64,000 nt of DNA from contig CDROCS010000681.1 of assembly GCA_977020255.1 (NCBI GenBank), forward strand, positions 744,001 through 808,000. Reading direction: 5' to 3'. The DNA is from Obrimoposthia wandeli. Lineage: Eukaryota. Positions 7,981 through 60,824 of this stretch are shown here, piece by piece. Position 1 is the stretch's first letter; the number at the start of each line of letters is the position of its first letter. The notes under the pieces were generated by a model. The model searched no databases. It had not been told where the DNA came from and saw only the letters and a list, made by a program, of their open reading frames with translations. A program made the translations under genes and the position numbers.

Positions 7981-8070
7981 GCAAACATTTTTTCTGAGAA
8001 AAATAAAACATACTTGAAGTTCATTTTGAGGTAGTAACAAATTTCTTAAATTTTGTTCCCAAGGCTTAGC

Positions 8071-8363
8071 AGTAGTATATAGTGTGGTACTAATTCAAAG
8101 CGACAAAGCTCACCCAGTTTGGGCTCTGCCGTTTAGAATTAGTCCCAACACTATAGTGGCTTAAAAAGTCTGTATATATTCATTTTTAGACAGAATGTCG
8201 TTAAAATGTTTAAAAATTGTTTAAATTGGCTTAAAATGACTTAAAATGACTCAAATTTCTACCTTTTACTGCAAAATCTATTTGAGTTTGTATGTGGGAT
8301 TTCTGATCTTGGCCAAAAAGTCCCGAAATCGAGCATACTAACTCAAGGCAATAGGTACCCCTT
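8071..8363 (+). repeat. Left terminal inverted repeat of the Polinton
   Basis: Aligns with the reverse complement of ~19850-19989 and with 13902-14170. Homology ends where the MCP frame is cut off. Confidence 0.9.
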
Positions 8364-8364
8364 A

Positions 8365-9349
8365 ACCAGTGATTGAATATACACAAACATGTATTCATCT
8401 TTTTCAAAGTTTGTATCGTACGTTTCAACAAAATCAGTGTTTATACTAAGGGAAATTGAACCGACATTACAATGATCAAATTCTGAAGTGTCTGTTTCAC
8501 TAGACCCGTCCATTTTAAGATTATGTTGAAATGTAACCAAACAAATTTAGGTAATTGCTCATCATCAATAATAGGTGATTTATAAAATGTTGTAGAGCCT
8601 TTAGGTAGTGAATAATGTACCACTTTTCCCGTCTATATGGATAAACCGCATTTTGAGTTTCCAAACCAACATTATGAGCCATCAAAACTGATAGTTCAAC
8701 TCGTACACGTCTAACTTTTATTTTAGCATCTAAAAATTTTATTCTACAATGAGTTGTACCTGTTTTTTAGTGACATGTTTGCATTGTAAATAATCAATTT
8801 TATACCGACATTCATATCGGGAAGCAGATATTTGGGTTGTTCAAGAAAATCCGATCGAATTGAACCGCACAACTCAAATTCACTAGATTTTTCAATCCAC
8901 CCTTTTCGTACATTCTCATTACTATCATAACCAATTCCATTTAATGAAACACATTTTGTATCTTTGCTATAATTAAGCATACATTCAATCAAAGCCTTGT
9001 GAGCATAATTACCATTTCCTCCTTCAATACGAGTATTATTCAGGTGAATTTGCACATCTTTAAATAGTGTATGGAAAAAGAAATTTGTTGGTATAAATTT
9101 ATCTGCTTCCACCATATCAATATAACTGTTTTTTCCAATATTTTTTATAACTTTAATTTTCAAATAAAATAGAGAATCATTCAAATCTAAATATTCTGTT
9201 TCACTCAAATAGATATTAAACTCGATTGTATTAATATTACTACCGGTAATATTATTAACCGGGTAAATATTCTCAAAACATCCATTTTCTATAGCAATTT
9301 GAGGTAGTATACGATCAAATAAACACAGTTCAGATTTTGCACATGCCAT
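8365..9349 (-). pseudogene. Polinton major capsid protein, frameshifted and 3'-truncated
   Basis: MACAKSELCLF...IYPV...IEFNI...YLDLNDS is a typical animal Polinton MCP N-terminus. It continues through frameshifts (RIKFLDAKIKVRRVRV...AVYPYRR; LPKGS...QLPKFV; FDHCNVGSISL...YMFVY) and then abuts the left TIR. Confidence 0.88.
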
Positions 9350-9352
9350 TTC

Positions 9353-9736
9353 TTACTCAAATATGGTTCCTATTTTTCTACGTTTGTTTATACTACCTCT
9401 ATCTTTCTGTACTTCTTCTTTCATTTCAACAGGAATTTGTGCTGGTCGTTTTCGACTTTTCTTTATTGCAGTCATTAGTTGAGTAGCAGCTTTTGTTGCT
9501 TCAGGCAATAACCCTGGTACCTCACTAATTGCATTTGATTTTAGTTCACTCAAAATTGGTTTATCGTTCATTACTACATTTGTAAGTGTTTTTGCACCAA
9601 TTCGTCCTAAATGTGATAGTATAGGAAACACAATTCGCCCCAAAACTTTCAACCAACCTGAACCATATTCTTTTCCAACAAAGTAAGGTAGGTTACCACC
9701 CGTTTGGGTTGTACTATACACATAAAATAGATACAT
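9353..9736 (-). CDS. Putative virion core protein
   Basis: Intact 127-aa ORF with QTGG...YGSGWLKVLGRIVFP motif and a basic C-terminus, between the penton and MCP genes. Confidence 0.6.
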   Translation of the reverse strand: MYLFYVYSTTQTGGNLPYFVGKEYGSGWLKVLGRIVFPILSHLGRIGAKTLTNVVMNDKPILSELKSNAISEVPGLLPEATKAATQLMTAIKKSRKRPAQIPVEMKEEVQKDRGSINKRRKIGTIFE

Positions 9737-9779
9737 TATTAACGATTAACATTGTTTAATTTTGTTTATACATAACTTT

Positions 9780-10820
9780 TCAGAAATGTAGTGTTAAACT
9801 AGTTTCTGCGTTATGAGCAACGTTTATCGGTATTCCACTATCATTACGAATATTTATTTCAATATTGGAAATATATGTTGATATTACAGGAAGATACATT
9901 GATCTAATGATTGTAATATTTGCGGTATCACCATAATTTTTGTTTTTATCTATCCAAATTGATTTTAACAATGGTATTTTTACACCATCAATATTTATAG
10001 ACTAAAATGGTATACATGTACATGTGATCAAACTCACATATAAATTGAGGAATACCTTTACCGTCACCTGTAAATTCTGTTTTATTAATACCCAGTACAA
10101 ATGCCATACGAGTATTAAACATTATAATTGAAATATTAGATTTTATATGATTTAATTTAGATATAACGTATTTAACTAATGCATTCAAATCTGTACTATT
10201 GGAATCGTTGTCAAACACGATTTTTGAATTGATATTTTTCTCTCCTAATTGATAATATTCAAATGTTGTTGATACATATTTATGATGTATGGTTTTTTGC
10301 GCAGTTAAAATACCATTATCATCAGATGCTAAGTAATTTTCAGGGTTTAATTGATTATTTAGGAAACCCAATTGATTTTTCGATTATTTCGATAGTTTTA
10401 TATAGAATTTCTGTTTATTTACAGATTTTATAAGAAGTACATTTTCTATTTTTTCTTCACCATATGTATCAAACTCACAATAAAGATTAGCATTGCGTTT
10501 TGATGATTTTATTTCTACTTTTGAAATTTTCTTTATATTAAATTTAACAGGTTTCTGCTTATGAATTTCCTCATCTTTAAATTCAACATTTTATGAGACA
10601 GTATCGGTTTTCTTAACACTAACCGTTTCCTTATAATTTATTTCACCACCCTTGTGTAAAATAACGGGTGTATTACTATAAGTAAATTCTGTCAATGCAA
10701 CTTCCCATTCACTTTGAATTTATATCGGATTTTCCCAATCAACAATAAATTTCGATGCGGTATTATCAGGTTAAGTGTTTGGACAACTATTAGATGGTAA
10801 CACAATATAGAAATCTTTTA
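9780..10820 (-). pseudogene. Polinton minor capsid (penton) protein
   Basis: N-terminus DFYIVLPSNSCPNT*PDNTASKFIVDWENPI*IQSEWEVALTEFTY and C-terminus MYLPV...IEINIRNDSGIPI...LTLHF match penton-type motifs. Multiple stops and frameshifts. Confidence 0.8.
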
Positions 10821-11823
10821 CTCTATCTGGTTCGCTTTTATCCATGTTGGTGTTTTATACCCATGCCACTTTACGTAATATTGTTTATTCTTACCTCGAC
10901 CTTTAGATTTAATGAATTCTTGTATCCTATATACTTTTGGTTTATCAATAACTTGTAATTCTTGCTCATAAAACTTTCCCTCTATCGGACTTTTATCCAC
11001 ATCTATGATGTTATACATTACGGGGTTTGCATGTAAATTGATTTTTGCTATTTCAAATACTTCATCACTCCAATTATTATTTTTAGTAAAAGGTGTTGTA
11101 CTTAGGCGTAATATGCAAACAAAATCTCCAACTTTGTATTTAGGTTTCTTTATTATTGATTTTCTATTACGAGAAAACCAATCATCAGATGAAATATCAA
11201 TATGTTTCTTACCACCTAAACCGCGATGTGGTGAGGGATTATATGAAATTAACAGTTTAGGTAGTACCTTTACCCATTTTTTTGATCCAAATACAACAAA
11301 ATGTTTCTTTAATTTATCTCTTAATGTCCTATTAAATCGTTCAACCAAGGCCGCTTTAAAGTGTGAAAACACAGAGTAATGATTTACTCCTAATTTATCA
11401 AAGGTTGCTTTAACATGTTTGTTATAAAACTCTTTTCCAGCATATGTTTGTACATTATCAGGTACAACATCAATCATATTTTTGATAGCAGCATCTATAT
11501 CTTTACCGAATTTTGATTTTACTGGTTCAGCACGCCCAACTCTGGTAAATACATCAATACATGTTAATATATATTTGTAACCGCTATTTATACGCGCATA
11601 AGGTATTATTTCCATCAAATCCATTTGCCATAAATTATTAGGGCCACTAGTCTTGTACGATCGTGTCGGGAACCTTTTTCGCATCATATTTGTTGAGACT
11701 GTACGACAGTTGATTGCTCAGCCATGCTTGAGTTTTCTTTTGGCTCGACTTGGTATTTGATGATAGAGATCCAACGCCGCTGTATCCAACTGGGTATTTG
11801 GGATCGTACCATATCGTTTCCAT
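10818..11823 (-). pseudogene. RVE-family integrase with C-terminal chromodomain
   Basis: N-terminus METIWYDPKYPVGYSG...AWLSNQLSYSLNK joins by frameshift to ORF 10818-11687 (WQMDL, QTYAGKEF, VERFNRTL; chromodomain YYVKWHGY). The second catalytic Asp position reads Tyr. Confidence 0.92.
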
Positions 11824-11874
11824 TGCAACTATTTATTTTTAAATCAAAATTAGGTAAGTTGTTTCCCATATACT

Positions 11875-12195
11875 TTAGGCAACAGCTCTAGCAAGTAGGG
11901 GACCGATTAAAGTTGCAACTATCGGTAAAAGAGCACCAATAAATCCTCCTTTTTGACGTAATACTATTTTCCTTCGACCAGAACCACTTTTTGTATTAAC
12001 AATATCAAGTAATACTTTCTTGTGTTTTGTAACTTTCAGCTTATGTTTACCGAGATTTATTTTTCCTTTAACTATATTAAACATAATTTTAGCCAATTTA
12101 TCGATAACAAAAGGCTGAAATGAATTGAGAATTCGAGCTCTATGTGAACTAGGTGCCTTTAAAAGCGTTTGAAAGTAAGGTAAAAAGTTTTTCAT
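11875..12195 (-). CDS. Small basic virion protein with C-terminal QKGGFIGALLP amphipathic motif
   Basis: Intact 106-aa ORF. The RRKIVLRQKGGFIGALLPIV motif is typical of small core or membrane-active proteins of animal Polintons. Confidence 0.65.
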   Translation of the reverse strand: MKNFLPYFQTLLKAPSSHRARILNSFQPFVIDKLAKIMFNIVKGKINLGKHKLKVTKHKKVLLDIVNTKSGSGRRKIVLRQKGGFIGALLPIVATLIGPLLARAVA

Positions 12196-12284
12196 TATTA
12201 TTTAAACTGAAAGTACATATATTGTTTATAGTCTTATTGAGAAAATGGATAAAAACCTTCTTTTTTGTTTTCCCTTTTTATCAA

Positions 12285-12515
12285 TTACAATTCAATTCTT
12301 TGTCTTTTTAACACATTTTTAACACACTTCTTCTTCTTTTTCTTTTTAGCACGTTTTTTTGTCGGTTTTGTCTTCTTTTTAAAAATGCGATCAGCATTTT
12401 GCCTTTCTTTCAAAACCGTTTTTATCAATTTCTTTACTCGATTAGCTTTGATATCATCACCAGGTTTCCAATTTGTATCAACATAATTAGGTATTTCTAT
12501 TTTTTCGAAATTCAT
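12285..12515 (-). CDS. Lys/Arg-rich small protein, unknown function
   Basis: 76-aa ORF starting 13 nt after the ATPase stop, co-oriented with the structural genes. Confidence 0.4.
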   Translation of the reverse strand: MNFEKIEIPNYVDTNWKPGDDIKANRVKKLIKTVLKERQNADRIFKKKTKPTKKRAKKKKKKKCVKNVLKRQRIEL

Positions 12516-12527
12516 TTTAAAGGAATA

Positions 12528-13157
12528 TTATCTTTGTTTTTGTTTATACACCATACATTTGTTGAAAATATCGGTTTTTATTCTCAATTCATCAGAACAT
12601 GATTGAGTAAAATTAAGAAACAAGTAACTATGAGGAATTTTAGTTGCATCTTGAAATGAATTTATCAAATATTGCCTGTTATTAGGAAATACTTGACGTG
12701 AAACATAGTCAATAACCGTTTGATCACGAGGATTCTTAAACAAAACCAAGTAATGTACGTTTAAATTACGTGTTCTGTGTTTACCGCCTTTATGAAATAG
12801 GTTTTGAGTAATGAAAATTACGGTAACACAGCTGTGTCCTGCTATTTTAATGAATAAATTATTAAAGTTTGACTCTTTATTTGCTTCATCATACAAGTCA
12901 TCAATGACTATAACATCATCACGTTTTAACTGTTTAAACCAGTTTTGATCAAAACCATTGATAAATTTAATGTTTTTAAGTTTACATAATTCACTTTTAG
13001 TTAACCGGGATTCGCAAACATCACCATAGTGCCAATAAATTTTATAAAATCGATTAATAAACATTTTATTGTTTTGTAATAATTTAGTTACAAAATGTAT
13101 TTTTCCACTACCACTAAGTGCCACTATCTGATATACAGCATTATTTTAAAGTTTCAT
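12528..13157 (-). pseudogene. FtsK/HerA-type DNA packaging ATPase
   Basis: MKL*NNAVYQIVALSGSGKIHF (degenerate Walker A, early stop), VIVIDD (Walker B), IFITQNLF, and RTRNLNVHYLVLFKNPRD. Confidence 0.9.
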
Positions 13158-13204
13158 AATAATAAGAAGAAGAAGAATAAGAATAAGATAAGAATAAGAA
13201 TATT

Positions 13205-13472
13205 GTTTATAGGCATTTTATTAATATATACACCAAAAACGAATTAAAAATTGATACAGAAAAAGTTATATACATCATGTTTGAACGATTAATCTGATAG
13301 AAATTTTCAAAATCCTTTTTCCATTTGAGATCTCTGTAGGCATGTGAGCGAACTATTTCTTTAAGATGATCACGACTATCTTCAATTAAACTTGAAAAGT
13401 ATTGAACACCATTTATTGTTCCTTTATAATTTCATCAACAACATCATCAACTAATTTATCGTTTTTATTCAT
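13205..13472 (-). pseudogene. Small ORF with hydrophobic C-terminus, unknown function
   Basis: MNKNDKLVDDVVDEIIK, then after a frameshift VQYFSSLIEDSRDHLKEIVRSHAY...SIFNSFLVYILIKCL*. Lies between the IAP and ATPase genes. Confidence 0.3.
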
Positions 13473-13901
13473 TCTTATATATAAATCACCAAAATTTCAA
13501 TTGTTTATACCATGAAATTTTACATTTCTTACTCTCCTTTCAATTATTTGTCGACATACTGGACATGAATGTAACCTTATGGAACATGAAATACATGTTT
13601 TTACATGTCTGCATGGTAGAAATACTACTTCAATATGATTATTCAAACATACTACACATTCAGGTTCTTTTAACATGTATGAAAGTATATCTATGGATTG
13701 TTTTACAGGGTTTATTTCTAAATTAGATAAATCACAAATCATTTCAAATAGTGAATTGTATTCTCCATATTGCATCATTTTATATTTTTAAACAGATTTT
13801 ATTCTATCTTTCGTGAAAAAGCTTTTGAAGTATCTGATGTTGTTGGTATCCATCAACATGTCAAATTTTTCAGTAGTTAAAGGATATTCAATTATACATT
13901 C

Positions 13902-16900
13902 AGTAGTATATAGTGTCGGTACTAAACCAGTTTGTTCCTTTGGTTTAGTACCAACACTATAGTGGTCTAAAAATTCTGTATACTGTCATTTTTTAAACAG
14001 AGTGTCGTTAAAATGTCTAAAATTTGTTTAAATTGGCTTAAAATGACTCAATATGACTCAAATTTTTACCTTTTTACTACAAAATATATTTGAGTTCGTA
14101 TGTGTAATTTCCAGACTTGGCCAAAAAGTCTCGAAATCACACATACTAAACCAATGGTAATAGCCTCCCCTGGGCAGGTACCTTTTACTGCAAAACCATT
14201 TTTGGCGTTGTATGCATGATTTCAAGACCTTTTTTCAAATATGGTGCTAAATATCTCGCCGTTTAAAACAAAATATGATTTCAAAACCATTTTCAAATAT
14301 GGCTCTAAATATCTTGCCGTTTAAAACAAAAGTAGATTTTGAGTAGATTTTAAGAAGATTTTAAGTAGATTTTAAATGGCCAAAGTCTCCCTTACGGAGC
14401 CTCCTAAGAGGGAAGCCATTCATCCGAAGACGAGCAGCACCTTTGAAAAAGATTATATTTATATTACTTTTGTTTATAGTTAAAGAATAATAAATCAATT
14501 AATTATTTATTCATATGATAAATAACATTTAAATCAATAAATCAATAATTCATGTGATACTTTGATGTTAATGATATTGATATTCTTTAGGGTTAGTGCG
14601 AAGAGCACATAACATATCCAAAGTACCTAGAGTCATAATGATGAAATGATTTTAAAACTAAAGTGTTTCGATTATATAAAAACCTAACTTCAATATAATT
14701 AGTCAACTAATCAAAATAATCCTATATAATAAATAATTTGATTAAACACAAAAGTTGTATTAATATATACAAGTGAGTGTGTGTATGTGTGTGAATGAGT
14801 GTGTACAAATGATTATGATATTAAATAGTCACAACAACAATAACAAAACTATATATATTATTTAAAATTATTAAGTTAAATTAAAATGACCGTAAGCAAG
14901 GCTTTTATTCTTACTAATTCTTTCATGTCTTTGGAAATAATAAATGTATTTGCAAATGTAAATTTTTTTTGTTGTTTGGTTTATCGATTTGACGTAATTT
15001 AGTATGATCAAACAGTATTTTTAGAATTTTTTCAATTTTTCAAATTATATTCTTTAAAAAGATTTATTATGTATTCATAAAAATAATTTGCAAACGAATG
15101 TGAAACATCTAATTTATAAATGTATTTAAAATTTTTTTTATTGAAATTAATATTTCTAATCTATATAAATCTAACTTTTATAAAATATAATGTAAAAACT
15201 ATGATGTTAAATACTTTTAATAAATTTAAAAATTTATGATGTTAAATACTTTTTACAAGTAATGTTTTAATTTTGAAATAATTTTTATATTTATTTGTAA
15301 GTGTAAAAGTTTTTTAAATTTATTTAGAAATGTTTTGTAAAATTCTAACGAATCTAAATTATGGAATATTGAAAATTAATTTGCAAACACATGTTATTCA
15401 AAGTTACTGAAAGTTTTGTTTAGAAATTAGAATACCAAATCTTTAATTATATTGTTTTATATGTAAATAAATCAAATAGTGTACATATTCGATTATCAAC
15501 TTAGTATTTCTATTTATTATTCAACTTTATAAAATATTAAAAATCTCTTCTGACAACAAATAAAATAAAGTATTGATCGTATGAATTAATACAAGTGTAA
15601 ATGTAAATAAAAGAAAGTAAAATTAACAATAAAGTACAAGTATTAATGAATCCAGCTACAAGTAAGAAATAATACGATTGCAAGTACAAATGTCAAGTAC
15701 AGGTATGAATGAAAATTAGTAAAAATATTAATGAATTTGAATGATAGTTTGAATAATGAGAGTTAATAGAGTTGAATAGTAAGAGTCTTAAACTGCAAGT
15801 GTGAAATTTTAATTGAGTAATTGAGAGGGGAAAAAATAATAAGAGTGTTGAGAGTATGATTGAATGTGAGTGTAATTTAAACTATAAGTAAATTAAAATA
15901 GAGTTTTCGTATTTATATGAGATTACTAGGAAACAACACTATGTTTGATGGCATGAATGAAAATAATTCTAAATGTGAGTAAAACTATAGACAAGTTAGT
16001 CATTAGAAATGTATGATTGAATGTAAATGTAAATCATAATGTAAATAAATTAGTTAGAGATTATGGTTAAAAAATAAAAATATCGGGAAATATTGTGGGT
16101 TAAGAAGAGAAGTATAGAGTTGGGCTTAAAGTAGAGAGACTTTTCGACGTGGTTAAGATGTTTAAGAAAAGAAAAATAGAAAGATTAATGATATTTTCAG
16201 GAAATTACGATATTCAAGTGGATAGTGCATAAATTCGTGAGATAAAACATCAATATCTATTAATAATTTCTATAACATTATACATCCTTCGGTAATCTTC
16301 CATATGTGTTTTAAACTTCCATCATATTTGATCATAAATCCTTGAATCATAATGAATAGGGGTCCATTTTTCATATCCTTTTCAACATTCCAATAATCTG
16401 CAAAAATACGTTCATCAGCTCTCACCAATATAGAATTTCTATGAATTTTATATCCAATATCTATTTAATTTTGTTTATTGGCATTCAAAAATTACTTTTA
16501 AACATAATATATTTTGTATATATTTAGTTTAATATGTTGTAAGTTATTACTGTAATAGTTCATTACATGAAAAGTAATTGATAGTTTACTATCGTTTACA
16601 ATAAATTGAAAATTTATACATTAGTTGTAAACAAATCAGTACTAATTGATTTAAACTAGATTAACTTTGTTTAATCTCGAGTATATTATATTCTTTGATT
16701 TCAATTAATGTACATTTTAAATATTATTTTGTATTAATGAATTGTAAATTTGTTTTCTCAATTAAAAGTTGAATGCTTTATCTTGTTAACAATGATAACA
16801 CAATATATATATAGAGAGAAAACGCAAACATTTCATTATACATAATTTGGAAGTTATTATTAAACAAAGTTAATCTTGTTTAAATCAATTATTAAAATTA

Positions 16901-17891
16901 AAACTAAAATTATTTAACATCATAGTTTTAAAATATATTTTATAAAAGTTAGATTTATATAGATTATAAATATTAATTTCAATAAAATTTCTAAAAATAC
17001 ATTTATAAATTAGATCTTTCACAATCGTTTGCAAATTATTTTTATGAAACATAATAAATCTTTTTAAAGAATATAATTTGAAAAATTGAAAAAATTCTAA
17101 AAATACTGTTTGATCATACTAAATTACATTAAATCGATAAACTAAAAAAAAAAAATTACACTTGCAAATACATTTATTATTTCCAAAGACATGAAAGAAT
17201 TAGTAAGAATAAAAGCCTTGCTTACGGTCATTTTAATTTAACTTAATAATTTTAAATAATATATATATAGTTTTGTTATTGTTGTTGTGACTATTTAATA
17301 TCATAATCATTTGTACACACTCATTCACACACATACACACACTCACTTGTATATATTAATACAACTTTTGTGTTTAATCAATTTATTTATTATATAGGAT
17401 TATTTTGATTAGTTGACTAATTATATTGAAGTTAGGTTTTTATATAATCGAAACACTTTAGTTTTAAAATCATTTCATCATTATGACTCTAGGTACTTTG
17501 GATATGTTATGTGCTCTTCGCACTAACCCTAAAGAATATCAATATCATTAACATCAAAGTATCACATGAATTATTGGTTTATTGATTTAAATGTTATTTA
17601 TCATATGAATAAATAATTAATTGATTTATTATTCTTTAACTATAAACAAAAGTAATATAAATATAATCTTTTTCAAAGGTGCTGCTCGTCTTCGGATGAA
17701 TGGCTTCCCTCTTAGGAGGCTCCGTAAGGGAGACTTTGGCCATTTAAAATCTACTCAAAATCTACTTTTGTTTTAAACGGCAAGATATTTAGAGCCATAT
17801 TGGAAAATGGTTTTGAAATCATAAAAAAGGGGTACCTTTTACTTCAAAACCATTTTGTTCCTTTGAGTTAGTACCGACACTATATACTACT
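13902..17891. mobile_element. Non-autonomous Polinton derivative nested in the IAP gene
   Basis: AGTAGTATATAGTGTCGGTACTAA termini at both ends. TSD ACATTC (13896-13901) versus ACAATC (17892-17897), one mismatch. Inverted arms ~13902-15215 and ~16910-17891. Confidence 0.92.
16270..16490 (-). pseudogene. 5'-truncated copy of the unknown Polinton accessory gene
   Basis: LVRADERIF...PLFIMIQGFMIKYDGSLKHIWKITEG aligns with FIKADEHLF...ILFIQIQGFKVDRLGRQKPIWRITEG of ORF 19196-19519. Confidence 0.75.
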
Positions 17892-18420
17892 ACAATCTGT
17901 TTCGATTTTCTCAATAACATTAACATCATTATATTGTCCTAAACATTTTGAATAATATATATCAGGTAATTTTACAACAACATCTGATACATATACTTTT
18001 CCAATCAATGGTGATGTATAAAAATCGATTTTCTTGACCATAGTTTCAATTATTGGTACATTTGAAACATTTAACATTAAAAGAAATGGACATGAAGGAA
18101 AAAACTTAATATGTTGCTTCATTGGTTTAAGATACCATTCCCAATCGAATATTGCACCTTGACAGTATATACATTTTACTTTATCAGTTGAATCATCATC
18201 ATGTTTATAAAATCCAGCTTTAGCTAAATTATATACAGATTGTTTCCCTTTAAAATTTATAATTAACGATCTTAATCTTTCACTTCCACGTCTATATTTC
18301 TAGTGTAAAACTTTCATTCTAGAATAATCTACTTTTTGTCTAACTAAAACATAATCAACAGTTTTATAATGAAGTATATAATCAACAAGCATTTTAAAAA
18401 ATTCAAAAACATATATTTGT

Positions 18421-18892
18421 TCATAAGAAACTTTCAAGAAAAAATACAATAGACTCGACTTGACAATGATAATCAAAATATTTAATACCATGAATAATCC
18501 CTTTTCCACTAGCAAACACATTAACACATAAAGGATTATACTTTAAAATTCTGAGTGCTAGAAACAATTCTGGTTCAAACATACAATTTCTTCCCATTTT
18601 CATAGATATCTTATACAAATTAACCTTCTTGTTGATATTCACTAGGATACTTAGAGATTGAATACGTTCAATTTCTATATTTATGAGCATGTTTGATTGG
18701 TTGTTTGCAAGTTATAATTCTGCATGAGCCTAAATAGTAGTAGTAATAATAATAATAATACCTGTTGGAAATATAACTATAGTATAATCCTTTAACTTTT
18801 CAAAATATTGTATAGGTTTTTTTGATCGAAAAGGTAAGTGACTAACACTTCCCTTAAATTTTACCTTTATAATTTATATTGATTATTTTCAT
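18421..18892 (-). pseudogene. TATA-binding-protein-like gene with a 32-nt intron
   Basis: Repeat 1: MKIININYKG...HLPF...IVIFPTG|SCRIITC after splicing GT...AG at 18761-18730. Repeat 2: IQSLSILVNI...MFEPELFLAL...VNVFASGKGIIHGIK, which resembles TBP YEPELFPGL...IFVSGKVVLTGAK. Stops and frameshifts present. Confidence 0.75.
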
Positions 18893-18941
18893 TATGTTAT
18901 AATAATTGATGATGTCACAAACATATATAGTTTCATATTAT

Positions 18942-18961
18942 CCAATGAGAATCAACCAATT
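18942..18961 (+). promoter_or_regulatory. CCAAT motifs in the spacer between the divergent TBP-like and unknown genes
   Basis: CCAATGAGAATC..CCAAT about 64 nt upstream of ATG 19017. The related CCAATGAGATTC lies about 60 nt upstream of the homologous gene in the 60 kb relic. Confidence 0.4.
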
Positions 18962-19016
18962 AGATTCAAGTAGTTAACTATAACTACCGAAACATTTCAG
19001 TTTACTCTCATTCATC

Positions 19017-19519
19017 ATGTTCAATTTTCAAAAAAGAAGAGCACAAAGAAGAGGAATAATGATATTTTAAATACAAGCAAAGTTGTACAGATAGATTCTG
19101 ATGATACAGAATTAGAGGATATTTTTAATGCAGAAACATAAGACCTATTCAAAGAATCTGTACCTTATTTCATTTATACAATAAATTTTCTAAAGATGCC
19201 TGTTACCTTTGGATTAAAATACCCTGTTATGCTAACAAAGTCCAAGTTTGACTATGTCATCTCAAGGATCCATCAAAATGATATTAATGATATCAATTCT
19301 ATTTTCAGAAGAATGATATTAGATATCAAAATTGAAAACTTTAGTGCTTTTATTAAAGCTGATGAACATCTGTTTAAAGGAATATATACTTACTCTGAAG
19401 AAGAATTTCCCAAAAGCAAATATTGGATTTTATTTATTCAAATTCAAGGATTCAAAGTCGATAGACTCGGGAGACAAAAGCCTATTTGGAGAATTACTGA
19501 AGGACATAATAAAGTTTAA
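19017..19519 (+). pseudogene. Unknown Polinton accessory protein (~165 aa)
   Basis: ORF 19196-19519 extends upstream through one stop (19139-19141) and a probable frameshift in an A-run to ATG 19017. Homologues at 16270-16490 and 59700-60179. Confidence 0.65.
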
Positions 19520-19539
19520 TAATATTTATCATATGAATA

Positions 19540-19989
19540 AATGATTTATTGATTTTATTTTAATGTTATTTATCTTATGAATAAATGATTTATTGATTTT
19601 ATTTTAATGTTATTTATCATATGAATAAATAATTAATTGATTATATTATTCTTTAAATGTTAACTATAAACAAAAGTAATATAAATATAATCTTTGCCAA
19701 AGGTGCTGCCCGGTCTTGCAGAGCTCGCCTCTTAGGAGGCTCCGCAAGGGAGACTTTGGCCACTTAAAATCTACTTAAAATCTACTTTTGTTTTAAACGG
19801 TAAGATATATAGCGCCATATTTGAAAATGGTCCGGAAATCACACATACGAACTCAAATAGATTTTGCAGTAAAAGGTAGAAATTTGAGTAATTTTGAGTA
19901 ATTTTAAGCCAATTTAAACAATTTTTAGACATTTTAACGACATTCTGGGGCTTTGTCGATTTGAGTTAGTACCGACACTATATACTACT
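19540..19989 (-). repeat. Right terminal inverted repeat of the Polinton
   Basis: Reverse complement aligns with 8071-8300 and with the nested element's arm (GGCCAAAGTCTCCCTT.CGGAGCCTCCTAAGAGG block). Confidence 0.9.
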
Positions 19990-20757
19990 CTTAGCTTGTC
20001 CAGAGATAATGTAATTTGCAACATATTTTTCATTGGTGTATTCATTATCCTTACTATCATCATTTTCAGACTTTTTAATGAATGACCACGAACTCATCAA
20101 TAGAAAATGGCTCTCCTATTTTCACAAAATATTAAGTGATTCTACAAACTGATGCTTATTTCTCTAATGTACGTGTCATCTAATTCATGTCATTAAAACT
20201 TTTATACTAAATTAAAGATAATTTATTTAGTGTTGACGATATGTTATAAATCATATTAGATACTTTAAATAATAGTGAAGCAAGCTTTTCATGATTAAAT
20301 TAATTATGATCCTGAACAAATAATAAACAAAGGTTTAATTGATGTTTATGGAAAATTTGTAATTTAAGTAAATTGTTTGAAAAGTTTGTGAAGAGAGAAG
20401 GAATTAAATTATGGTTATTTATACCAAAGTTTATGGATGAAATTGTCTGAGAATTTAGTTTTAACATATTCAAAGAAGAAAATATCAGACAGGAAAGATA
20501 AAAGTACATAAGTAATAAATGAATGGGTACAGAGAAGCTAAAATGAGAAAGAGAATTTATGATATTTTGATAGGATTTGATGAAATTATATATAGTTTTT
20601 TGTTGATTAATAATCTTAATAAAAAAGTAACATATTCTTTTTTAATGATAGGCAGCACAAATCAAAGTCATGTTTGAAATGCAAAGTATCCCACGAACTT
20701 GACAATTATCGAATATTTAAAATATTAAATGTTAACCAAAATATGGAAGTTAGTAAA

Positions 20758-30600: not shown

Positions 30601-31379
30601 TCAGTTTTGTGAGTCGATGTAGGTGCAGCAAGGCTGCTGGCTATGGTAGTCGATGGTTGTGGCTGTGTTGGAGATCTGAATGAGGCTGCTGTCGCCGTTG
30701 CTGTTGTGAATATTGAGTTCCGGCTGTGTGTTTTGAATGGAGCATTCTCCCACCGTGTGGTGGTGGATCGTGCCGCGGTTTCTCGCCAGATTCAATCGCA
30801 CCGCACCAGTCGCAAGATGAGAACGAGATGTGCGATATTTATCGTCGTTGACGGTGTCAGTTTCAGAGCAGTCGAACAATTTCATGAAGTCCTTGCGAAA
30901 TTTGCGGCCAGCGATGCAATATATGAAGAAGTTTATCGAGTGATTTGTGTTCATGAGCAATTCCACAATGGAGTTCACGAGATGCAGCTTGGAATTGAAG
31001 CCGGGATCGACTAAGATTGTAGGAGTTTGTTTCTTGATAATGGTTAGCACGATTTTGAAGATGACAACGGGAATGATAGTGAGCATGAACACCCACGAGA
31101 CGAGGATGAGCATGACGAGCTGCTGAACTGATTGTGAGTTGGCTGGAGAGTACCGATGCTCCGAGGTCACAGTTTTGGAGTTGCTGGTTGATTGACTTGG
31201 CACGTGACAAAGCTGCATGAGTTGGCGTTGCTGGCGGGCTTTCTTCAGGTAGTGGATGATCTTCATGTTGGCCACGTATATGATCAGACACGGTATGTAG
31301 CAGTAGATGGCAGCATCGAACCAGGACCACACAAGTCCAAATACTTCTCGTTTGAAGTCACACAATGGGGCTTGAACTG
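30601..31379 (-). CDS. Rhodopsin-family peptide-receptor-like GPCR, 3' coding exon (ECL2, TM5-TM7, tail)
   Basis: TM5 WSWFDAAIYCYIP, TM6 LILVSWVFMLTIIP, TM7 NTNHSINFFIYCIAGRKFRKDF. GC-rich against the flanks. Phase-1 acceptor AG before 31379 or 31376. Confidence 0.9.
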
Positions 31380-33699
31380 CTCAATTTGAAGGATAAGTTT
31401 CAAATATTTGAATATTGTTGACAATATAAATATCATTAAAACATAAAAATGATCTAATTGGTTAAATTGTTTTTTTTTTTTATTATTAAAAACATTTTTA
31501 TGTAATTTGCTACTTAATGTTTTTCGGAGTAAATATGGGGTTAAATTTTTTTAAACAAAACATACCATTTTTTTTCTTTTTACGATGTTTATAGGAAATA
31601 ATGTAGTCCGATTGAAAAGTTTAAGACAACAGGTTTCATATAAATCTAATTTTATTTATTTATTTAATTAACAATGATAAATATTCTTTAGTTTTTATTT
31701 ATTTGCATGATATCCATGCATATTACATTAAATATAATTTTAAAGCATAATTATAGTTTTTTGTAAATACAATCTGACATTAAACTAAAAAAACTCAAAT
31801 TGACTCATGGACTTTTAGACATATGCTTCATTGGCACAGTGCCACCGAATTGTCACTTTTTTACGGGTATTCTCTTTGTTTTTGACATTTTGGTAATATT
31901 TCATAAACATTTTTAACTCAAATTTTAAAACTTAATTCAAGTATAAAATATATATTTCGCTTTATTAAAACAAATTGGAATAAAATATTTCATTTTAACC
32001 TTATATTTTGCAGTTACTTCAAACAATTTAATCAAATTTCGATTTGAGTTCATCAACGCAAATTAAATACCTTCCATTCATCAAACCAATTAATACAGTT
32101 GGAATTTGCAGAATAAAAATAACTGAACCATTTTAATAAATATTAATTTTTTTCTTTCTTATTTTTATTTTGATATAAACAAAATAAGTATGAAAACAAA
32201 GATAGAGATTGTAACCCAATAATGTAGGAGGGACATTTCTGCGAAAGGTTTCCTATGACTTAAAGAATATTTAAATATATTAAAATTAATTGATTGTTCT
32301 AAACTTAAATAGATTGAAATTAATTAATGGCTTTTTGATTTTCAAATAGAAATCAGAACAAAATTTCGATTAAGAAAGTTCTAACCACTTTAATAAATCA
32401 TGTGAAAATATATTTGATTAATGGAATTGAAATTAATTTAAATAAATTGAATGGGAATTAATTGTTTTAATTGTATTAACAAATTTATTGAAATTGAATT
32501 AATTGTTTTGATGAATTGGAAGTATTTAAATAGTTTTAATGAACTCAAATTGAAATGTAAGATTCTTGGTAAAACATGTTCGAAATCTTTATTTTGATTT
32601 AATTTCATTGGTTATGGAATAAACTCTGCGAGTTCTTTTATGGTCAACCTTCTTGGTTCATCATGTCAAAAGATTGATTTTTAGAAAATCCACATTTTTC
32701 AGCTGTGTGACCCTTTTGTCCATTGCGCATGCTGCCGTGAAATGCCGATAATTGTGTAATAAAAGAGACTAATACTTATGCAATCATACATTCATAGTTT
32801 AAATATCTATTTGGGTACATATATTTGTCTAACAACATTTTGACTTTAAATGGGTATTTTATTAAAGAGATTATTTAGGAAATAAAGTGTTCGAAACTGA
32901 ACAAAATGCAACAAATGGGATTTCGAGAATAAGGTAAATTTAAAATTTAATGTATATGGAAAGTAACAGAAAATTACCAAACGTCACTGACAAGTTGAAA
33001 TAAACATATAAATAGACATAAGTAGCATAATTAACAAAAATATTATGTCATTGATCAAAATTAATTTCAAAAGGGGAAAATTGGAATATATATCGAAAAT
33101 CGTATTTTAAATGTTTAAAAAATCAATATTTTGCATTTGAAAGTGATACAATTATTTTTCTCTATTTCTTTACTCGAGAAAGATCTTAGAATTTCTGAAA
33201 ATAATTTCCATGCGTTCCAGATCAATAACAATCTGACTAAATATTACGTTTTTGACTAATTTTTGTGTTTGTGGCATATTGTGTGTTAAATTGTCATAAT
33301 AAACTTTATGGTGAAAGTAAATTACATCAAAAATTCTTTTAAAAGTGACAATACAATCTGTTTTAACTATGCTTCTTTTTCTCTGCTATTTTCTAAAGTC
33401 AAATGAAAAATAACAGTTTTCAGTGGATTTCAAATATAGTAAATTTGAATAAAACTATTTTTAGTTATATGAAAGTAATTCAAATGATAAATTCAAAAAT
33501 TTTTCTTTGAAATTTCGATTAAAACGAATTTTGGTAACATCAAACTTTTGTTGTCCATATATATATTTGCCGTAGCTTGATAAATTGTAGATTGTGGTGC
33601 ACACATATTATACGTTTGTTGTCCAACATAACTGATTGGGTAAGCTAGTATTCATGTTTAAATGCATCGTATTTTCTTTATAAGAGTATAATATAATAA

Positions 33700-36600
33700 T
33701 AAGATAAGATAAAAAAACTATATATTCATAGTAAACACATGCAGGGAATTAAATTCCCTATAGTAAGGTGTCTTCTACTTCATGTAAGACCGATGAATCT
33801 CCAGGGAGATTGTTTGTGCGACACTGCTTGGTGGTTTCCCAGGTTGTGACTGCATTTTCTAATTATTTCCAGACCATTGGAAAAATAAATATTATATGTT
33901 CTGGTATTTCAATTGCTTTCAAAAAGAATTGGTCAGAAATTTCAAATGGGTAATTTATTTCATAATACAAACATCCACTTTTCAATCCACTCCAATTTGT
34001 TTGCAGTCATAGCATCTACTCTATCAGGTATTGTATCCACAGTTTCTGAAACTCCACGTAGTCTAAAGCAATTCTACTGGGCACAGGTATGTTCTATGAC
34101 CTTACTTGAGATTCGTATTTTAATCTTCTTTCTTTCTGCAGCTGAATATTTGTAAGCCTGGAAAAGTTGGTTGTTGTCAACATTCCAGAACCCGAGGGTC
34201 CCTACTCTAATGACATAGATTTCTACCATTTTGTCACTATTATTTTTCCGCGTAGTCTCGACTAGATTCTGATATTTTTTCATTGCTTTGCTGCAACTAT
34301 TATTTTGACTCATATTACTGTCAAAGATAACTTTAATTTCCACATAGTGGATGTAGGTTCTACCTTTTTACAGTAATATCTGGTCTAGCTCGCTGAATAT
34401 TGTCACTGTCATTCATTACCGCAGTAGTTTCCTCCATGGCAATAGTATCTCCGTTTTTTAGGGCAACTTTAAGTAAGGCATATACTTCTCGAACTACCAT
34501 ATCGTGCCTCTGTACTTTCCAGTGATGCATTTTATAGCATCCTACTATAGCATGGGATACAGTCTCGGATGATGGTTTGTTTTATATTTTACACCCATAT
34601 CGGCAACAGTTAACTTCACGCTTACTATATAGTGCTTTAAAATCCAGGCGTCCTATTCGGGCTTTGTGTATAAAGTACCATGCTTTATGAGCGAGTTTAT
34701 CCTTTAGGATAAACCTGTTAATGTCCGTATCAGATCTAGCATTTTCATAAATCACCGATGCTGGTTTATCATTAATTCTTACATGCTCAGTCCTAGCAAT
34801 TGCGATCTGGTTGTGGAGATTGGCACTGACTTCTTTGTTATCTTTGCTTGTGAGTACGGTATTAAGATTATCCTTCTTAATGTAAATTATTACTTCATCA
34901 TTTTCACCATCTGTATCTCCTCTAGAGATTATAATTTCGAGATTCAATTCCTTCTTGATTTTCTTGTGAGCCTCAGTATACCTTGCCCACTCATTTCTGT
35001 CCGTTGTTTGAATGACTTTTTCATTTACGGCTTGGGTCAGACAATTCCAAACGTATCTGCATTCCAGGAATAGTTTACTTACTAAGGAGATTAGTTCAAG
35101 TCTAAAGGCTTGTTGTAATCCTCCACGGTCTGCATTCGCTATTTTGAAAACCTGGTTTATGGCTTGTATATTATACTCATCCATGATAGTTGGTATATCG
35201 AATCCTCCATGATCTTTATGACCATGGACAGTTCCAAAAGGGGTATGTTTAGGCAGTCCTGCAATTCTTTGAAGTTGTTTCCTCACTTGCCGGTCATAAG
35301 CTTATTTTGTTACTCCTTTAGTACATCTATCGTTGGCGAATCTGTCGTAGGATATATTGTTTTGCCTGAAACTGAATACAAACTTGGAATGTACAAAGCT
35401 TTTGTACGCCGAGATTTTCTGATGAGGATACAGTCTACTGTTCATGATCTTCATAGTCATTTCAAGATTCTCCTCAAATATATCCTCGTATTTGTGTTTT
35501 GTATCTGCATTCCTGTTCATACCTAGGTATCTGTAGGGACTATCTGTAGTTACTGCATTTATAGGGTCTCCATCGAGTAAGATCTCCTTGATTCTTTCTT
35601 TACATCTCTATTATTTCTACCTCTGAAGGGAATTCTGAGTATTCCACATTTCCTAGGTCTGAATCTCAATTGATACTGGCTGCAGTATCTGTTGCAGTAT
35701 CCACCACGGTCTTCAGTACAGATTTGTCCTCAGCGAGTAGGCAAGATCATCTGCATATGCTAGGATATCAAAATGTGTAGAGCCAAGTTTGAATCCAGCG
35801 TTGGGTACTTTGTTTACTGCCTCAAGACGGGCTTAATATAGAGATGAAATATAATAATGGACAATGGACAATTTTGGCGTACACCTTTTTTAATGGGTAT
35901 ATCTGTAATATTAGTTTCTCCACGTTGTATGTCGATTTTGTTCTCTTCGTAGATACTGTATACAAGTTTACATATCTTCTCAGAAATGTAAACTTTCAAC
36001 ATCATTCCAACGATGAAGTCTACGGGCACTGACTCAAAGGCATCAGCGATATCCAGGAATGCAACATGGCAGGATCTTTTGTTTCTGTGACACTCATTGA
36101 TGACGAGATTGAGTACTGTATTGTGCTCAAAACAGCCCTCAAATCTGCCAATGCTCTTTTTCTTTTCATGCCCAGTTTCGTAGATCAGAAGCAATAACAC
36201 TTGCCAGTACTTTATAAAGGCAACTCATAACTATCCAGGATCGTGTTAAACAAGGACGTTATCTCATTGCAATTCGGGTCTTGTTTCCTGATGTTGGAGT
36301 AAATTATCCCACCAGGCCCTGGGACACTAGCAGGAGCTTTCCTGGGAGAGAAACTTACCATCTTGGCAGTAACAAAATAGCATTTAAAGGTGCTTTCTCC
36401 TCTCTGAAAAAGGTCGTTGGGTAATGTACTCCAGTCCGTTGGTATAGATTCTGGCATCTTAGTCTCAAAGAAACCAAGTATGTTTCTTCCGTCTGGCGTA
36501 CTATGAATATCAATGTTGTCGATCATAATCTGATTGATTGTTTCTTTGGGATTTACTCGATACAATTTGGCAAGATCGTGGTCCTTGACTGCGCTTGTCT

Positions 36601-36780
36601 TTCGGGGTTTGTAATGTTTGTCTTTAGCATTCTCATGCTTTAATGCAAACTGTTTCTCCACAAATCTACGTTCGATGCAGTTGATCTCAATCATGATCGA
36701 GGGTTCCACGGTCCTCTCACTAGGGGAGAGGGTACTACTCAGCACATTGGGGATGTCAACAACGAAACTCAATAAGCCAG
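33700..36780 (-). mobile_element. R2/NeSL-type non-LTR retrotransposon (RT + CCHC + REL endonuclease), decayed, in the GPCR intron
   Basis: RT motifs GCFEHN, AFLDIADAFESVP, GVRQNCPLS, AYADDL, YRYLG, HGGFDIP. CCHC CRYGC...SHAIVGC...QRHD. RPDI...EIKV, KKYQNL and GTLGFW. 3' hairpin AGGGAATTTAATTCCCT followed by a simple-sequence tail. Confidence 0.9.
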
Positions 36781-39513
36781 TAAGTGTACATTGTACATGT
36801 TGTATAAAAGGAAGACATAAATGTTTCTTAGGCTTAATTGTTAATTGATTAAAATAAGAAATACTATTTTTATTTTCATTTATTTATGCTAAAAAATTAA
36901 AATATTTAAATGAGCTTTGTAATGAAATTGATCTCGAATAATATTTTAATCAAGATAATGAGAACGAACAAAGTATATTTATTATATCCACAATTCATAA
37001 GAACTTATTAATATTTATCAAATAATTAGTATACATATCGTAAATAAAACTAGTTTGTATTGATATATTCGACAGATATTTCTATTCTTTCCACAATAAA
37101 CAGAGAGAATCCAAATATGTTCTACCATAAATTAAAGATTTCAATTATTTTAAATATTTTAAATAATGGAACATTCAGGTCATGGTTTGGCAATTATAAT
37201 AGAATTAAATTTTCGGTTTCCATTTACAGTTTTACAGTTTTTGCTGGGCCTGGAGTGCTGTTAAATGAAATTAAAGCCATATTTTTCTTGATTGCTAAAA
37301 TATATCCTTTCTGTCGAGTACAATAAACTGTTGAGTACAGATATAAAATAACCATCCGATTTTACAAAACCATAAACCATGATACCACTATCTTGAATTG
37401 GTTCTTTTTACGGTTGATAATATCTTCATAAGATACCTAAATTAAAAATATTATGTGTCATATTAACACCAAATATATACTATTTATTTATCTAATATAT
37501 ATATATATTTAATTGTAAATATACTAAATAACAAAAAATTGAAGTAAATATCTTAAAATTCTTGTTATTTTTTCTCGACTACTTATAATAATATGTTATG
37601 AGTAACGCATTTTTTAAACCTAAAATAGAAATTTTGAATATTTCTTAAAATTAAATTATACGATGTATTATATTATAATTTATCTCTAAGATCTTTAGCA
37701 AAACCATCAGATTTTACGGCTTCCAAACACATCTTTACTAGAAAACAATTTACTGAAAATTAATGCTGCCCTATTTCATTAAAATACTGCTTCTCATAGA
37801 ATTTTTACTTGTGACTGCTTTATAGAAAACCTTAATAACGTCTGGCTGGATAATATCTTCTACTAAAATGTTCAAATAGTGGTTTTCTTTGATAGTAGGT
37901 TTAGATATATGGGATAAATATTGACGAGAATTTAATTCAAAATGACACTTCTTATCTATTGATGAGAATAATGTTCGAATGGATTCGTGATTTAAGTTAT
38001 AGAAAGGAATGTCAGATTTAAAAAGGCTTTATTTACTTCTTCAGTATACTTTGACGAAACTTTAAAAGGTTGAGTGGATTATTTTGTTGGAATCCAAACA
38101 TTTTAAATGATTTTCTCCTATTAAATTATTAGTAATTAAAATTATTAATAAAAATTAATTTACCACTTCTGTTACTTTGAACAAAGAATCATTTTCAATT
38201 GAGTTTTAATAATTCGCTATAAATTTCCATTTAGATTTCGATCTGAAAAATATCTTGGGAAACTAATAAATTTAATCTTTTTTCAGAAACATATTCAAAG
38301 TGCTTTATGACGTTGTGCCATATCATGTTGAAAAATACATTTGCAGTTTGGAAAAACTAAACACTTACCAATCGTTTCAAAATTTTCTAATATTGCTTTG
38401 TATTTTACAAATTTTTTGGTTTCTTTAATAAATTTTAAAATTCATATTCCATTAAAATTTGTATATCTCAACACAGGATTATGAGGTTTCTAAACCCATT
38501 GTTCACCCGGCCTTTTATCACCGAGGCTTGATATCACCTATGTATATTGCCACCTAAACTTTTGTCTTCAAAAATTTTAAATAAAAACTTTAAAACCGCA
38601 TTATTAAATTTGAATATTTTTTTAAAAAAAATGTATCTTACAATTAAAAATAAATTAATTTGAATAGTTATTTATTCGTCTTAAATTCAATACAATTAGA
38701 TATATACTTATAAATACATGCTTAATAAAATAAATATTATAGAAATCACAATATCCTTACAGTCCATACATTTTTTATTTTTAACAACTTAAATATAAAA
38801 CTATAAATAATAAGTCTTTAGTTGAAAAAGAGCGGACGGCAAATAACCGGTTACACTGAGCCGAATGGCAATAGGCATATTCCAAAATATGATATGTATG
38901 TTTCATTTGCAGGTTGAAGGGCAAGTTTCCAACAACAAAAAAATACCTGTGAATTACAAGTTTTCTGAATGTCTTGAAGTATTGAAAAATACATTAATCA
39001 CTAAATACAATCAAATAGCAAAATTGAATGTTTATTTTTGTAGAAAAATATGCTTTTTAATAGTTTTATAACATATAAAAAAATATTTTATCAAAATTAT
39101 CTGAACACTTCTGGTTGATAAAGTTATTTTAGCATATTTATTGTAAATACTACAATTTTTTGCAAGAATCAATCTGTCTTTTAAAGAACATCTTACAATA
39201 CTTTTGTTCATATTCGATACTTGCTGTACTTGGCCTACCACTTTGAGATTTAGCATTAATAATAATATTTTTATGATGCTTTTTACAATTTTCACTTATT
39301 AATCATTGATTTGATTCCAAGGGAGACCATGATTTTTAAAATCCTAAAATAACGAGAAAACAAACCAATTAAAGGAATTGGTATTTCATGATCAGTCTTT
39401 AATATGTTTAAAATATAAAAATACACTATAATTAAGGGTTACAAGGGTTTCGTCACATTCTGTAAATCGAAGACAATTCAAAGTTACCTCCTAACCTTAA
39501 CAGTTCAACGAAC

Positions 39514-40051: not shown

Positions 40052-40163
40052 CGAGAGTCTGCACTTCTGCTCTGTTTCTTTTCCCCCTGGAATGTCACAT
40101 TAAATCCGCTATAGTTTCAGGAATTAATTAATTTGGTTATTAATTCTAAAATTGTGTTGAAGT

Positions 40164-60778: not shown

Positions 60779-60824
60779 AGAACTCATTAACTCAGGATAA
60801 TATATCTAACTGAGTATGCGCAAG

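Follow-up and report, generated by a model that had tools for sequence, protein, structure and literature searches.

The question raised by this locus is what three genes at one end of a Polinton/Maverick element are for. The stretch analysed, referred to as the window, comprises 64,000 nt of Obrimoposthia wandeli (assembly GCA_977020255.1, contig CDROCS010000681.1, positions 744,001–808,000 of the forward strand). The element occupies window positions 8,071–19,989; it begins with AGTAGT, ends with ACTACT and is flanked by CTTAGC at either side; these genuine termini and the perfect 6 bp target-site duplication (TSD) had been recognized in a first-pass annotation of the window and were confirmed. 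The right end carries genes for an inhibitor-of-apoptosis-like protein (IAP), a TATA-binding-protein-like (TBP-like) protein and a third protein, and the three had been proposed to form a single host-manipulation cassette. Comparison of the window copy with its own family (B), with four other families of the same genome (A, C, D and E) and with metagenome contigs points to a different use. It is rather probable, judging from the sequences, that the element-encoded reduced TBP recognizes the element's own promoter word, TATAAACA, and so switches on its capsid and packaging genes. The anatomy of the element is firm, and the late-promoter mechanism is what we infer.

Structure and conservation of the TBP-like protein

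The TBP fold was modelled on a naturally unbroken family A homologue rather than on the broken window gene. The family A frame, aligned with 16 homologues, gave an AlphaFold model with a pLDDT of 91.7, and in a Foldseek search with this model ranks 1–44 were all TBP chains (best E 1.7e-9, TM 0.70). The TBP-like profile matched both repeats of the best solved TBPs. A Pfam search of the window element, which took in 17 frames, placed a TBP match over the cut-off at 18,424–18,711 (E 4.6e-7; second repeat), and the first repeat lies upstream of it in pieces (profile matches at 18,733–18,873 and 18,671–18,799). The predicted two-repeat TBP saddle fold is regarded as real on the strength of the model, and the earlier description of a two-repeat TBP-like gene stands.

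TBP has four DNA-wedging (intercalating) phenylalanines, its stirrup is the site for TFIIB, with which it forms a textbook pair, and the long helix of repeat 1 is where TFIIA, TAF1 and Mot1 bind. In the TBP-like protein, repeat 2 keeps the stirrup and two phenylalanines and repeat 1 keeps one; the three phenylalanines (F39, F100 and F116) are invariant, one fewer than the TBP set of four, and the repeat-2 stirrup residues P97, E98 and F100 are invariant in 17/17 rows. The long helix of repeat 1 is missing, the model having no helix between residues 12 and 81 and the alignment showing a deletion relative to the host paralogues. Host TFIIB was seen in the genome as short exons. The conserved stirrup, together with the upstream word described below, suggests that the TBP-like protein may bind a TATA-type sequence and TFIIB.

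The second part of the TBP-like gene is under purifying selection between families D and C (dN/dS 0.15), as are the ATPase (0.12) and integrase (0.11) genes; all dN/dS and dS values given here are pairwise Nei–Gojobori estimates from single natural copies. The phylogenetic comparison with host TBP that had been proposed earlier was run on 37 rows and 102 columns, with L077 and L078 omitted because they had no unbroken stretch. In this tree the 4 host TBP/TRF rows were separated from the 29 Polinton TBP-like rows (support 92/92), with a long viral branch beside the Polinton rows. This separation argues against a recent capture from this host. The host TBP-family genes lie on G000:C238, C968, C60 and C1092: C238 has an inverted pair, the gene on C968 contains long introns, and two divergent paralogues have none.

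The ATAAACA word upstream of virion genes

The top 7-mer upstream of start codons was ATAAACA, found within 110 nt of 39/55 starts in seven elements against 3.4 expected. In 80 nt upstream stretches read by eye, the word precedes the ATPase gene in 7/7 families and the capsid gene in 6/7, compared with 0/3 for the TBP-like gene and 1/5 for the third gene, termed SSB-like below, and the split by gene class is to be taken as such a reading. CCAAT boxes precede the TBP-like gene in families A and B, and the SSB-like gene in B, C and D. Upstream of the IAP gene, family D has the word, family B a one-mismatch form and family C a plain TATA-like box.

Each of seven coding-strand words in the window has a start codon 26–47 nt downstream of it; from 8,363 to 13,901 there are nine words on the coding strand and two on the other. 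The genes preceded by the word are mostly virion genes, so the likely target of the mini-TBP is a late promoter of the element itself. The word before the capsid gene (9,385–9,391) falls within the coding end of the core gene, where an S-I-N-K peptide is conserved in several families.

A candidate intron in the TBP-like gene

The TBP-like frame of families B, C and D is interrupted at the same glycine codon and in the same phase by a GT-AG interval of 26–44 nt. The motif was found in 18/21 family B places, with the AG acceptor in 18/18 and a proper GT donor in 15. Among places with the motif, an interval with an AG acceptor was present in 6/6 of family D and in 10/10 of family C, some of the latter being two arms of one element, and family E has the GT donor in 2/2. 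The interval sequences are unalike between families, that of family B being a simple ATT/ACT repeat, and both flanks are conserved. The frame is continuous at the motif in 8/8 places of family A and in 24/28 metagenome contigs, the motif not being found in the other 4. The TBP tree mixes intron-bearing with intronless families, and a single intron-bearing clade was neither supported nor rejected (p-AU 0.30).

The host TBP gene has its own 47 nt intron, so tiny introns are normal in this genome; this intron lies elsewhere in the gene. An origin of the interval from the host TBP gene was considered and rejected, since no break interrupts the host frame at the interval motif. Four runs, all from one sample, showed flat and very high, DNA-like depth, and none of the joints listed skips the interval. 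Comparison of the families suggests that the GT-AG interval is probably an intron. An annotation blind to introns calls the TBP-like gene broken in three families.

The third gene as a predicted single-stranded-DNA-binding protein

The third gene, given as unknown in the first-pass annotation, had no homologue by word search, its Pfam matches were all sub-threshold (no family matched in the window) and its Atlas matches were below 0.9 and unrelated. An alignment of 24 homologues gave a model with a pLDDT of 89.7. A Foldseek search of the PDB returned Enc34 single-stranded-DNA-binding protein (SSB) as its top matches (E 0.07), a structural search among 48,161 chains had DUF2815, Enc34 SSB, T7 gp2.5 and African swine fever virus (ASFV) CP312R as its top four (Z 7.0–7.4, middling), and 19 viral models matched the fold at E≤0.001 (best 1.4e-5), these being giant-virus proteins where named. 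The three structure searches agree, and the modelled protein is therefore likely an SSB of the T7 gp2.5/Enc34/giant-virus type, with single-stranded DNA binding predicted; Z-scores below 8 and Foldseek PDB E-values above 0.001 speak against this assignment. A predicted SSB implies a role in replication rather than in host manipulation. The SSB-like genes of families D and C are 33 % identical with saturated dS, and those of families B and D encode an acidic N-terminal extension. A weak tblastx match had raised the possibility of a pPolB polymerase remnant, which was dropped after the alignments and the fold.

The IAP-like gene and its likely exchange between families

The presence of a BIR+RING gene was borne out, with Pfam matches of E 1.6e-13 each for the BIR (17,892–18,299) and the RING (13,500–13,787). 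Anti-apoptotic baculovirus IAPs have two BIRs. In families B, C and D alike the element gene has a single BIR, followed by a weak UBA-like stretch (3.2 bits against cIAP1) and a C-terminal RING, and the baculovirus-type architecture ascribed to it earlier does not apply. All four zinc ligands of the BIR are present. The column that holds Asp in cIAP1 BIR3, the acid of the groove for the IAP-binding-motif peptide, holds Leu in families B, C and D. Any anti-apoptotic activity is putative.

Between families B and D, dS is 0.13 for the IAP gene, 1.35 for the ATPase gene and 1.01 for the integrase gene, and it is saturated for the TBP-like and SSB-like genes. DNA identity between the two families is 63–74 % over the TBP-like gene and then 88–95 % across the IAP gene. 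This jump, and the low dS beside divergent neighbours, indicate that the IAP region was likely exchanged recently between families B and D. Seven IAP homologues were found, the best being a mite IAP at 26 %, and no viral contig carrying an IAP homologue was found. A BIR search of the genome was dominated by element copies; two host-like BIR frames (L075 and L076) were unalike by eye.

Proposed expression programme and alternatives

The observations would fit the following course. The pPolB-less form of about 9.8 kb is inserted at a number of sites, where it has TSDs of its own; the polymerase would have come in trans from a pPolB-bearing form or a relative. Host factors would transcribe the TBP-like and SSB-like genes first, from a shared CCAAT-containing promoter, and the host would have to splice a tiny intron out of the TBP-like message of families B, C and D. 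The SSB would coat displaced strands in protein-primed replication. With its TFIIB-facing stirrup kept and the regulator-contacted helix of repeat 1 lost, the mini-TBP would then recruit host RNA polymerase II at this late word. In the weakest step, the IAP would be an optional RING ubiquitin ligase, with a BIR that does not have the usual peptide-binding acid, and may delay cell death. Taken more broadly, and only tentatively, this may describe a widespread lineage of 12–15 kb Polintons with an early/late viral programme, in which a giant-virus-type SSB and a minimal TBP without the surface contacted by host regulators are made early by host factors, TATAAACA is the late word before the virion genes, the TBP gene has in this host come under splicing control through a gained tiny intron, the IAP is traded among co-resident families and polymerase-less satellites keep the full capsid set. 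If the TBP-like protein reads its own word, it would prefer TATAAACA over TATAAAAG.

The word fits the forkhead consensus, has a Sox-like core when AT follows, starts with TATAAA and is a variant TATA box. A host factor (TBP, forkhead or Sox) could therefore read it, in which case the element's TBP-like protein would act otherwise, at the termini in replication or packaging or as a non-specific helper. This is in our view unlikely, though it would suit the slight over-representation of the word across the whole window (57 occurrences against 40 in shuffles) and the reduced first TBP repeat with its missing wedging phenylalanine. Further points weigh against a self-directed TBP: some of the 55 starts were mis-picked, the family C SSB-like gene is preceded by the word, and there is no perfect word within 110 nt upstream of the integrase start in the window. 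No TBP-less Polinton to serve as a control came from the viral-contig searches (with the capsid, and with an ATPase alignment that gave one distant match) or from phage records. The TBP tree is short with long branches, and dS is unreliable above 1, each value coming from single copies. What argues against reading by a host factor is that the word is strand-fixed and stands 26–47 nt from the start codons of seven window genes, a pattern more in keeping with a core promoter than with an enhancer. The word is also common to lineage members from unrelated samples, and the repeat-2 stirrup does not vary.

Improbable, in comparison with the self-directed TBP, is a single acquired cassette of IAP, TBP mimic and third gene that acts on the host through blocked apoptosis and jammed or redirected host transcription. 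The three genes do adjoin in families B, C and D, the IAP gene is under selection between C and D (dN/dS 0.39) and some family C copies hold the block twice. However, the genes are ordered and oriented differently in B/D, C and A, TBP-like and SSB-like genes are also found where the IAP gene is absent, the third gene has a predicted SSB-type fold, the IAP gene appears to have moved between B and D without its neighbours and its BIR has Leu in place of the peptide-groove acid. A TBP that is likely self-directed, a predicted SSB and an apparently swapped IAP thus argue that the three genes are not one host-manipulation cassette, and this part of the first-pass annotation is not retained. It is very improbable that the GT-AG interval is an old disabling insertion, which would reduce the TBP-like gene of families B, C and D to a relic, of relevance in the intronless lineages alone. 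The simple repeat in family B, and the fact that no spliced form was seen, would agree with such an insertion. Less readily explained by it are the shared codon and phase of otherwise unalike intervals in three families, the AG acceptor in every family B, C and D place with the motif, the variable length between conserved flanks, the purifying selection between D and C on the part after the interval and the short intron of the host TBP gene itself.

Sister copies and the pPolB-bearing form of family B

Sister copies of the window element were sought with window positions 17,892–19,520 as query, and 40 of 3,744 candidates were scored. In 31 other near-complete places at least 1,500 of the 1,629 bases of this right-end block were covered at 89–95 % identity. 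The sister copies thus keep the three genes, which are element cargo as the first-pass annotation had held. Twenty of the 31 places were retrieved for closer reading. The fullest family B sisters are about 9.8 kb and have the capsid, protease, integrase and ATPase genes and the three right-end genes without pPolB; in sister L023 the integrase is a 336 aa open frame. Two pPolB-less copies (C1400 and C393) have TSDs matching at both ends.

A junction that skips pPolB and runs past the protease gene was common to 17/29 close copies, a share that is biased because the query contained part of the junction, which tells against leaning on it. One family B copy retains the last ~50 codons of pPolB, and searching with this remnant turned up pPolB genes whose ends lie in the same terminal region. 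Family B structural genes were joined to pPolB in 4/7 of the pPolB-bearing places retrieved. At G000:C308, pPolB, the structural genes and the IAP, TBP-like and SSB-like genes occur together without the protease gene, 90 % alike to L023. A pPolB-bearing form of the window's family with the same terminus, which the first-pass annotation had proposed looking for, therefore exists, and the window copy is a deletion derivative of an autonomous family B. Family D was considered as a helper of family B and dropped, as the termini do not match.

Other arrangements were also observed. L039 resembles a B/D recombinant, with a B-type right end and a D-type ATPase gene, and in L022 a family D copy lies immediately beside a family B copy. 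Tandem arrays of element pieces with periods of ~3.4 kb and 7.15 kb were found at G000:C577 17,995–46,201 and C3084 3,828–18,325.

Distribution among families A, C, D and E and metagenome contigs

pPolB genes are numerous in the genome (91 scored of 24,443 candidates). The TBP-like gene was found in families A–E and, in a metagenome scan, on 28 contigs. Family A (6 places retrieved) has pPolB, an unbroken TBP-like frame of 147–156 aa and a homologue of the third gene, and no IAP gene. Family D has the gene order of family B, with pPolB after the protease gene and termini that differ from those of B; in family C the IAP gene is followed by the TBP-like gene, and the order and orientation of the right-end genes are unlike among B/D, C and A. 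The SSB-like profile matched 15/28 of the TBP-bearing metagenome contigs and the IAP gene was found on 0/28, most of these contigs being short. The near-complete contigs L112 and L124 (13–14 kb) have pPolB and the structural set, and no IAP gene. The presence of the TBP-like and SSB-like genes in the IAP-less family A and metagenome relatives indicates that these two are genes of the lineage and that the IAP gene is optional.

In family C copies G000:C609 (L089–L090) and C777 (L091–L092), a 4 kb SSB-like/IAP/TBP-like block is duplicated as inverted repeats of 99.7–99.9 % identity around the structural genes, with no pPolB between; a BIR pair is also present on C873. A DEDD-like gene occurs in families A and C (L095 near 8,400–8,640), and L130 has two SSB-like copies. 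Accessory genes at L124:222–719 and L118:4008–4319 are, by motif, what we take to be a ubiquitin-conjugating enzyme and a dual-specificity phosphatase.

Decay of the window copy

The window copy is a dead, shortened fossil of its element (Table 1). The virion and integration genes attributed to it earlier are there in part: integrase, ATPase, capsid and pX-like frames were found in a decayed copy without pPolB and protease. The packaging ATPase, both capsid genes and the cysteine protease are recognizable by motif, order and homology to relatives, with a weak DJR match alone from Pfam. ATPase, penton and protease had no Pfam match in the window or relative frames, the protease gene being deleted from the window copy. 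The window capsid frame is homologous to the 403–413 aa capsid ORFs of relatives. The deletion at 8,362/8,363 removed the 3' end of the capsid gene and the protease gene, corresponding to ~1.8 kb of L023, with window position 8,363 mapping to L023 7,802. Stops or frameshifts are present in all three right-end genes, and dN/dS between the window copy and its sisters is 0.55–2.3, as expected from decay after insertion. No pPolB remnant was detected at E≤0.1 in the window copy and five sisters (6/6 tested), and the window copy, having no pPolB, is thus a non-autonomous derivative.

The BIR and RING are 4 kb apart in the window because a nested terminal-inverted-repeat (TIR) element (13,902–17,891) sits within the IAP gene; the two domains are contiguous in 20/20 sister copies. 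The nested element is flanked by ACATTC/ACAATC (5/6 alike). It has a family B terminus and long inverted arms derived from its sub-terminal region; an SSB-like fragment within it (16,273–16,464) comes from another family, and a short sequence of it (16,488–16,607) recurs in tandem at 62,228–62,786 with 88–92 % identity.

Table 1. Features of the Polinton element in the window (window coordinates)
Feature	Position	Strand	Remarks
Left target-site duplication CTTAGC	8065..8070	+	Matches right copy
Left terminus, outer TIR part; remainder removed by internal deletion	8071..8362	.	Deletion at 8,362/8,363
Major capsid protein gene, broken, 3' end cut	8363..9349	-	Pfam DJR-like E 0.018, weak
Small basic core-like gene	9353..9736	-	Conserved in every family examined
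Seven ATAAACA words, candidate late promoter	9,385; 9,763; 10,882; 12,223; 12,541; 13,204; 13,502 (within 9385..13508)	-	
Minor capsid (penton-like) gene, several broken frames	9780..10845	-	Position and homology to relatives; no Pfam match
Retroviral-type integrase gene with C-terminal chromodomain, broken near 5' end	10818..11823	-	Pfam rve E 5.4e-6 (under cut-off), Chromo E 0.026
pX/Mu-like core protein gene	11875..12195	-	Pfam Adeno_PX E 0.0069, weak
Small lysine-rich gene	12285..12515	-	
Packaging ATPase gene, broken near 5' end	12528..13157	-	74 % identical to family D ATPase
Small (~90 aa) gene	13207..13472	-	Has counterparts in families C and D; one on metagenome contig L124 by eye
IAP gene, 3' part (weak UBA-like stretch and RING)	13497..13901	-	Stop 13,788–13,790
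Nested non-autonomous TIR element, same terminus type	13902..17891	.	~970 bp inverted arms (94 %)
IAP gene, 5' part with single BIR	17892..18392	-	Stop 18,300–18,302
TBP-like gene, two repeats (first reduced)	18421..18892	-	Frameshifts near 18,865 and 18,700
Candidate 32 nt GT-AG spliceosomal intron in TBP-like gene	18730..18761	-	Codon as in families C, D
Shared divergent promoter region of TBP-like and SSB-like genes	18893..19016	.	Two CCAAT boxes (18,942–18,960), no ATAAACA
Predicted SSB gene (formerly 'unknown gene')	19017..19519	+	Frameshift near 19,030, stop 19,139–19,141
Right terminal inverted repeat with 44 nt sub-repeats	19520..19989	.	
Right target-site duplication CTTAGC	19990..19995	+	

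Outside the element, a second decayed cluster of another Polinton family was observed at window positions 59,000–61,000, with TBP-like (60,335–60,787) and SSB-like (59,177–60,008) pieces and a 77 % match to family A nearby. Two exons on the minus strand (30,601–31,380 and 39,497–40,099) presumably belong to a host rhodopsin-type peptide receptor gene, and we take the fragments at 34,582–36,883 (minus) and 51,189–51,935 (plus) to derive from non-LTR retrotransposon genes.

Comparison with known systems

These findings bear on whether integrated animal Polintons make virions and on what would trigger their capsid genes; the available part of one study states that particles have not been observed (PMC8097293). 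With an element-encoded TBP and a defined word, a late programme could be assayed directly, and this genome has young families whose reading frames are open. The reduced TBP would also amount to a naturally minimized core transcription factor. The literature searched, with subscription journals and Repbase lying outside that search, gave no description of a Polinton lineage that bears a TBP and has a shared promoter word of its own.

The gene labels themselves predate this work, as IAP, SSDBP and TBP already appear on adintovirus and MELD-virus maps. In the available parts of Starrett et al. 2021 (PMC8502044), IAP homologues are stated in adintoviruses, TBP is named in the MELD-virus figure legend (section 3.4), and IAP and SSDBP are labels on supplementary maps, from which the genomes and any co-occurrence are not discernible. 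As far as the available parts of the sources go, the elements share TIRs, a 6 bp TSD, integrase and the putative ATPase and two putative capsid genes with known Polintons/Mavericks and adintoviruses (PMC8502044, PMC8097293, PMC6431247), together with the putative protease and pPolB in the full-length form. They differ in that the window copy and a spread sub-family are without pPolB. In what is available of the respective reports, intact vertebrate Mavericks have no introns reported (PMC8097293), unlike the TBP-like gene with its candidate intron here, and nematode Mavericks have intronless core genes and host-derived cargo genes with introns (10.1101/2022.07.12.499685). Exchangeable accessory genes near a terminus and recombination between elements are common to the nematode elements and those described here; the candidate intron here differs in that the gene holding it belongs to the lineage and has no intron in relatives.

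At the protein level, the IAP-like protein shares all four BIR zinc ligands and the C-terminal RING with animal and baculovirus IAPs (cIAP1 3t6p; mite RWS10821.1) and differs in having one BIR, with Leu for the peptide-groove acid, and a weak UBA-like stretch of the kind seen in animal IAPs. The predicted SSB has the OB fold with the same added elements as T7 gp2.5, Enc34 SSB, ASFV CP312R and the giant-virus homologues; it differs from solved gp2.5-type SSBs in its low identity (8–14 %), smaller size and lack of an acidic C-terminal tail. The TBP-like protein shares the two-repeat saddle and conserved repeat 2 with cellular TBP/TRF and archaeal TBP (Pfam PF00352; PDB 7z0o_H, 1mp9, 2z8u), and differs in its length (~150 aa), its 20–24 % identity to solved TBPs and its reduced repeat 1.

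Viral TBP mimics reportedly include human cytomegalovirus UL87 and ASFV pB263R. KSHV (Kaposi's sarcoma-associated herpesvirus) ORF24 is a mimic of TBP for late promoters and, as a section heading of the same source puts it, is not compatible with TFIIB being bound directly (PMC12529657). As far as the available text allows, the likeness of the Polinton protein to these three would be one of working, in that a TBP-fold protein would pick out late promoters through a private TA-rich word. Compared with the large ORF24, the Polinton protein would be a minimal stand-alone core that has kept its stirrup.

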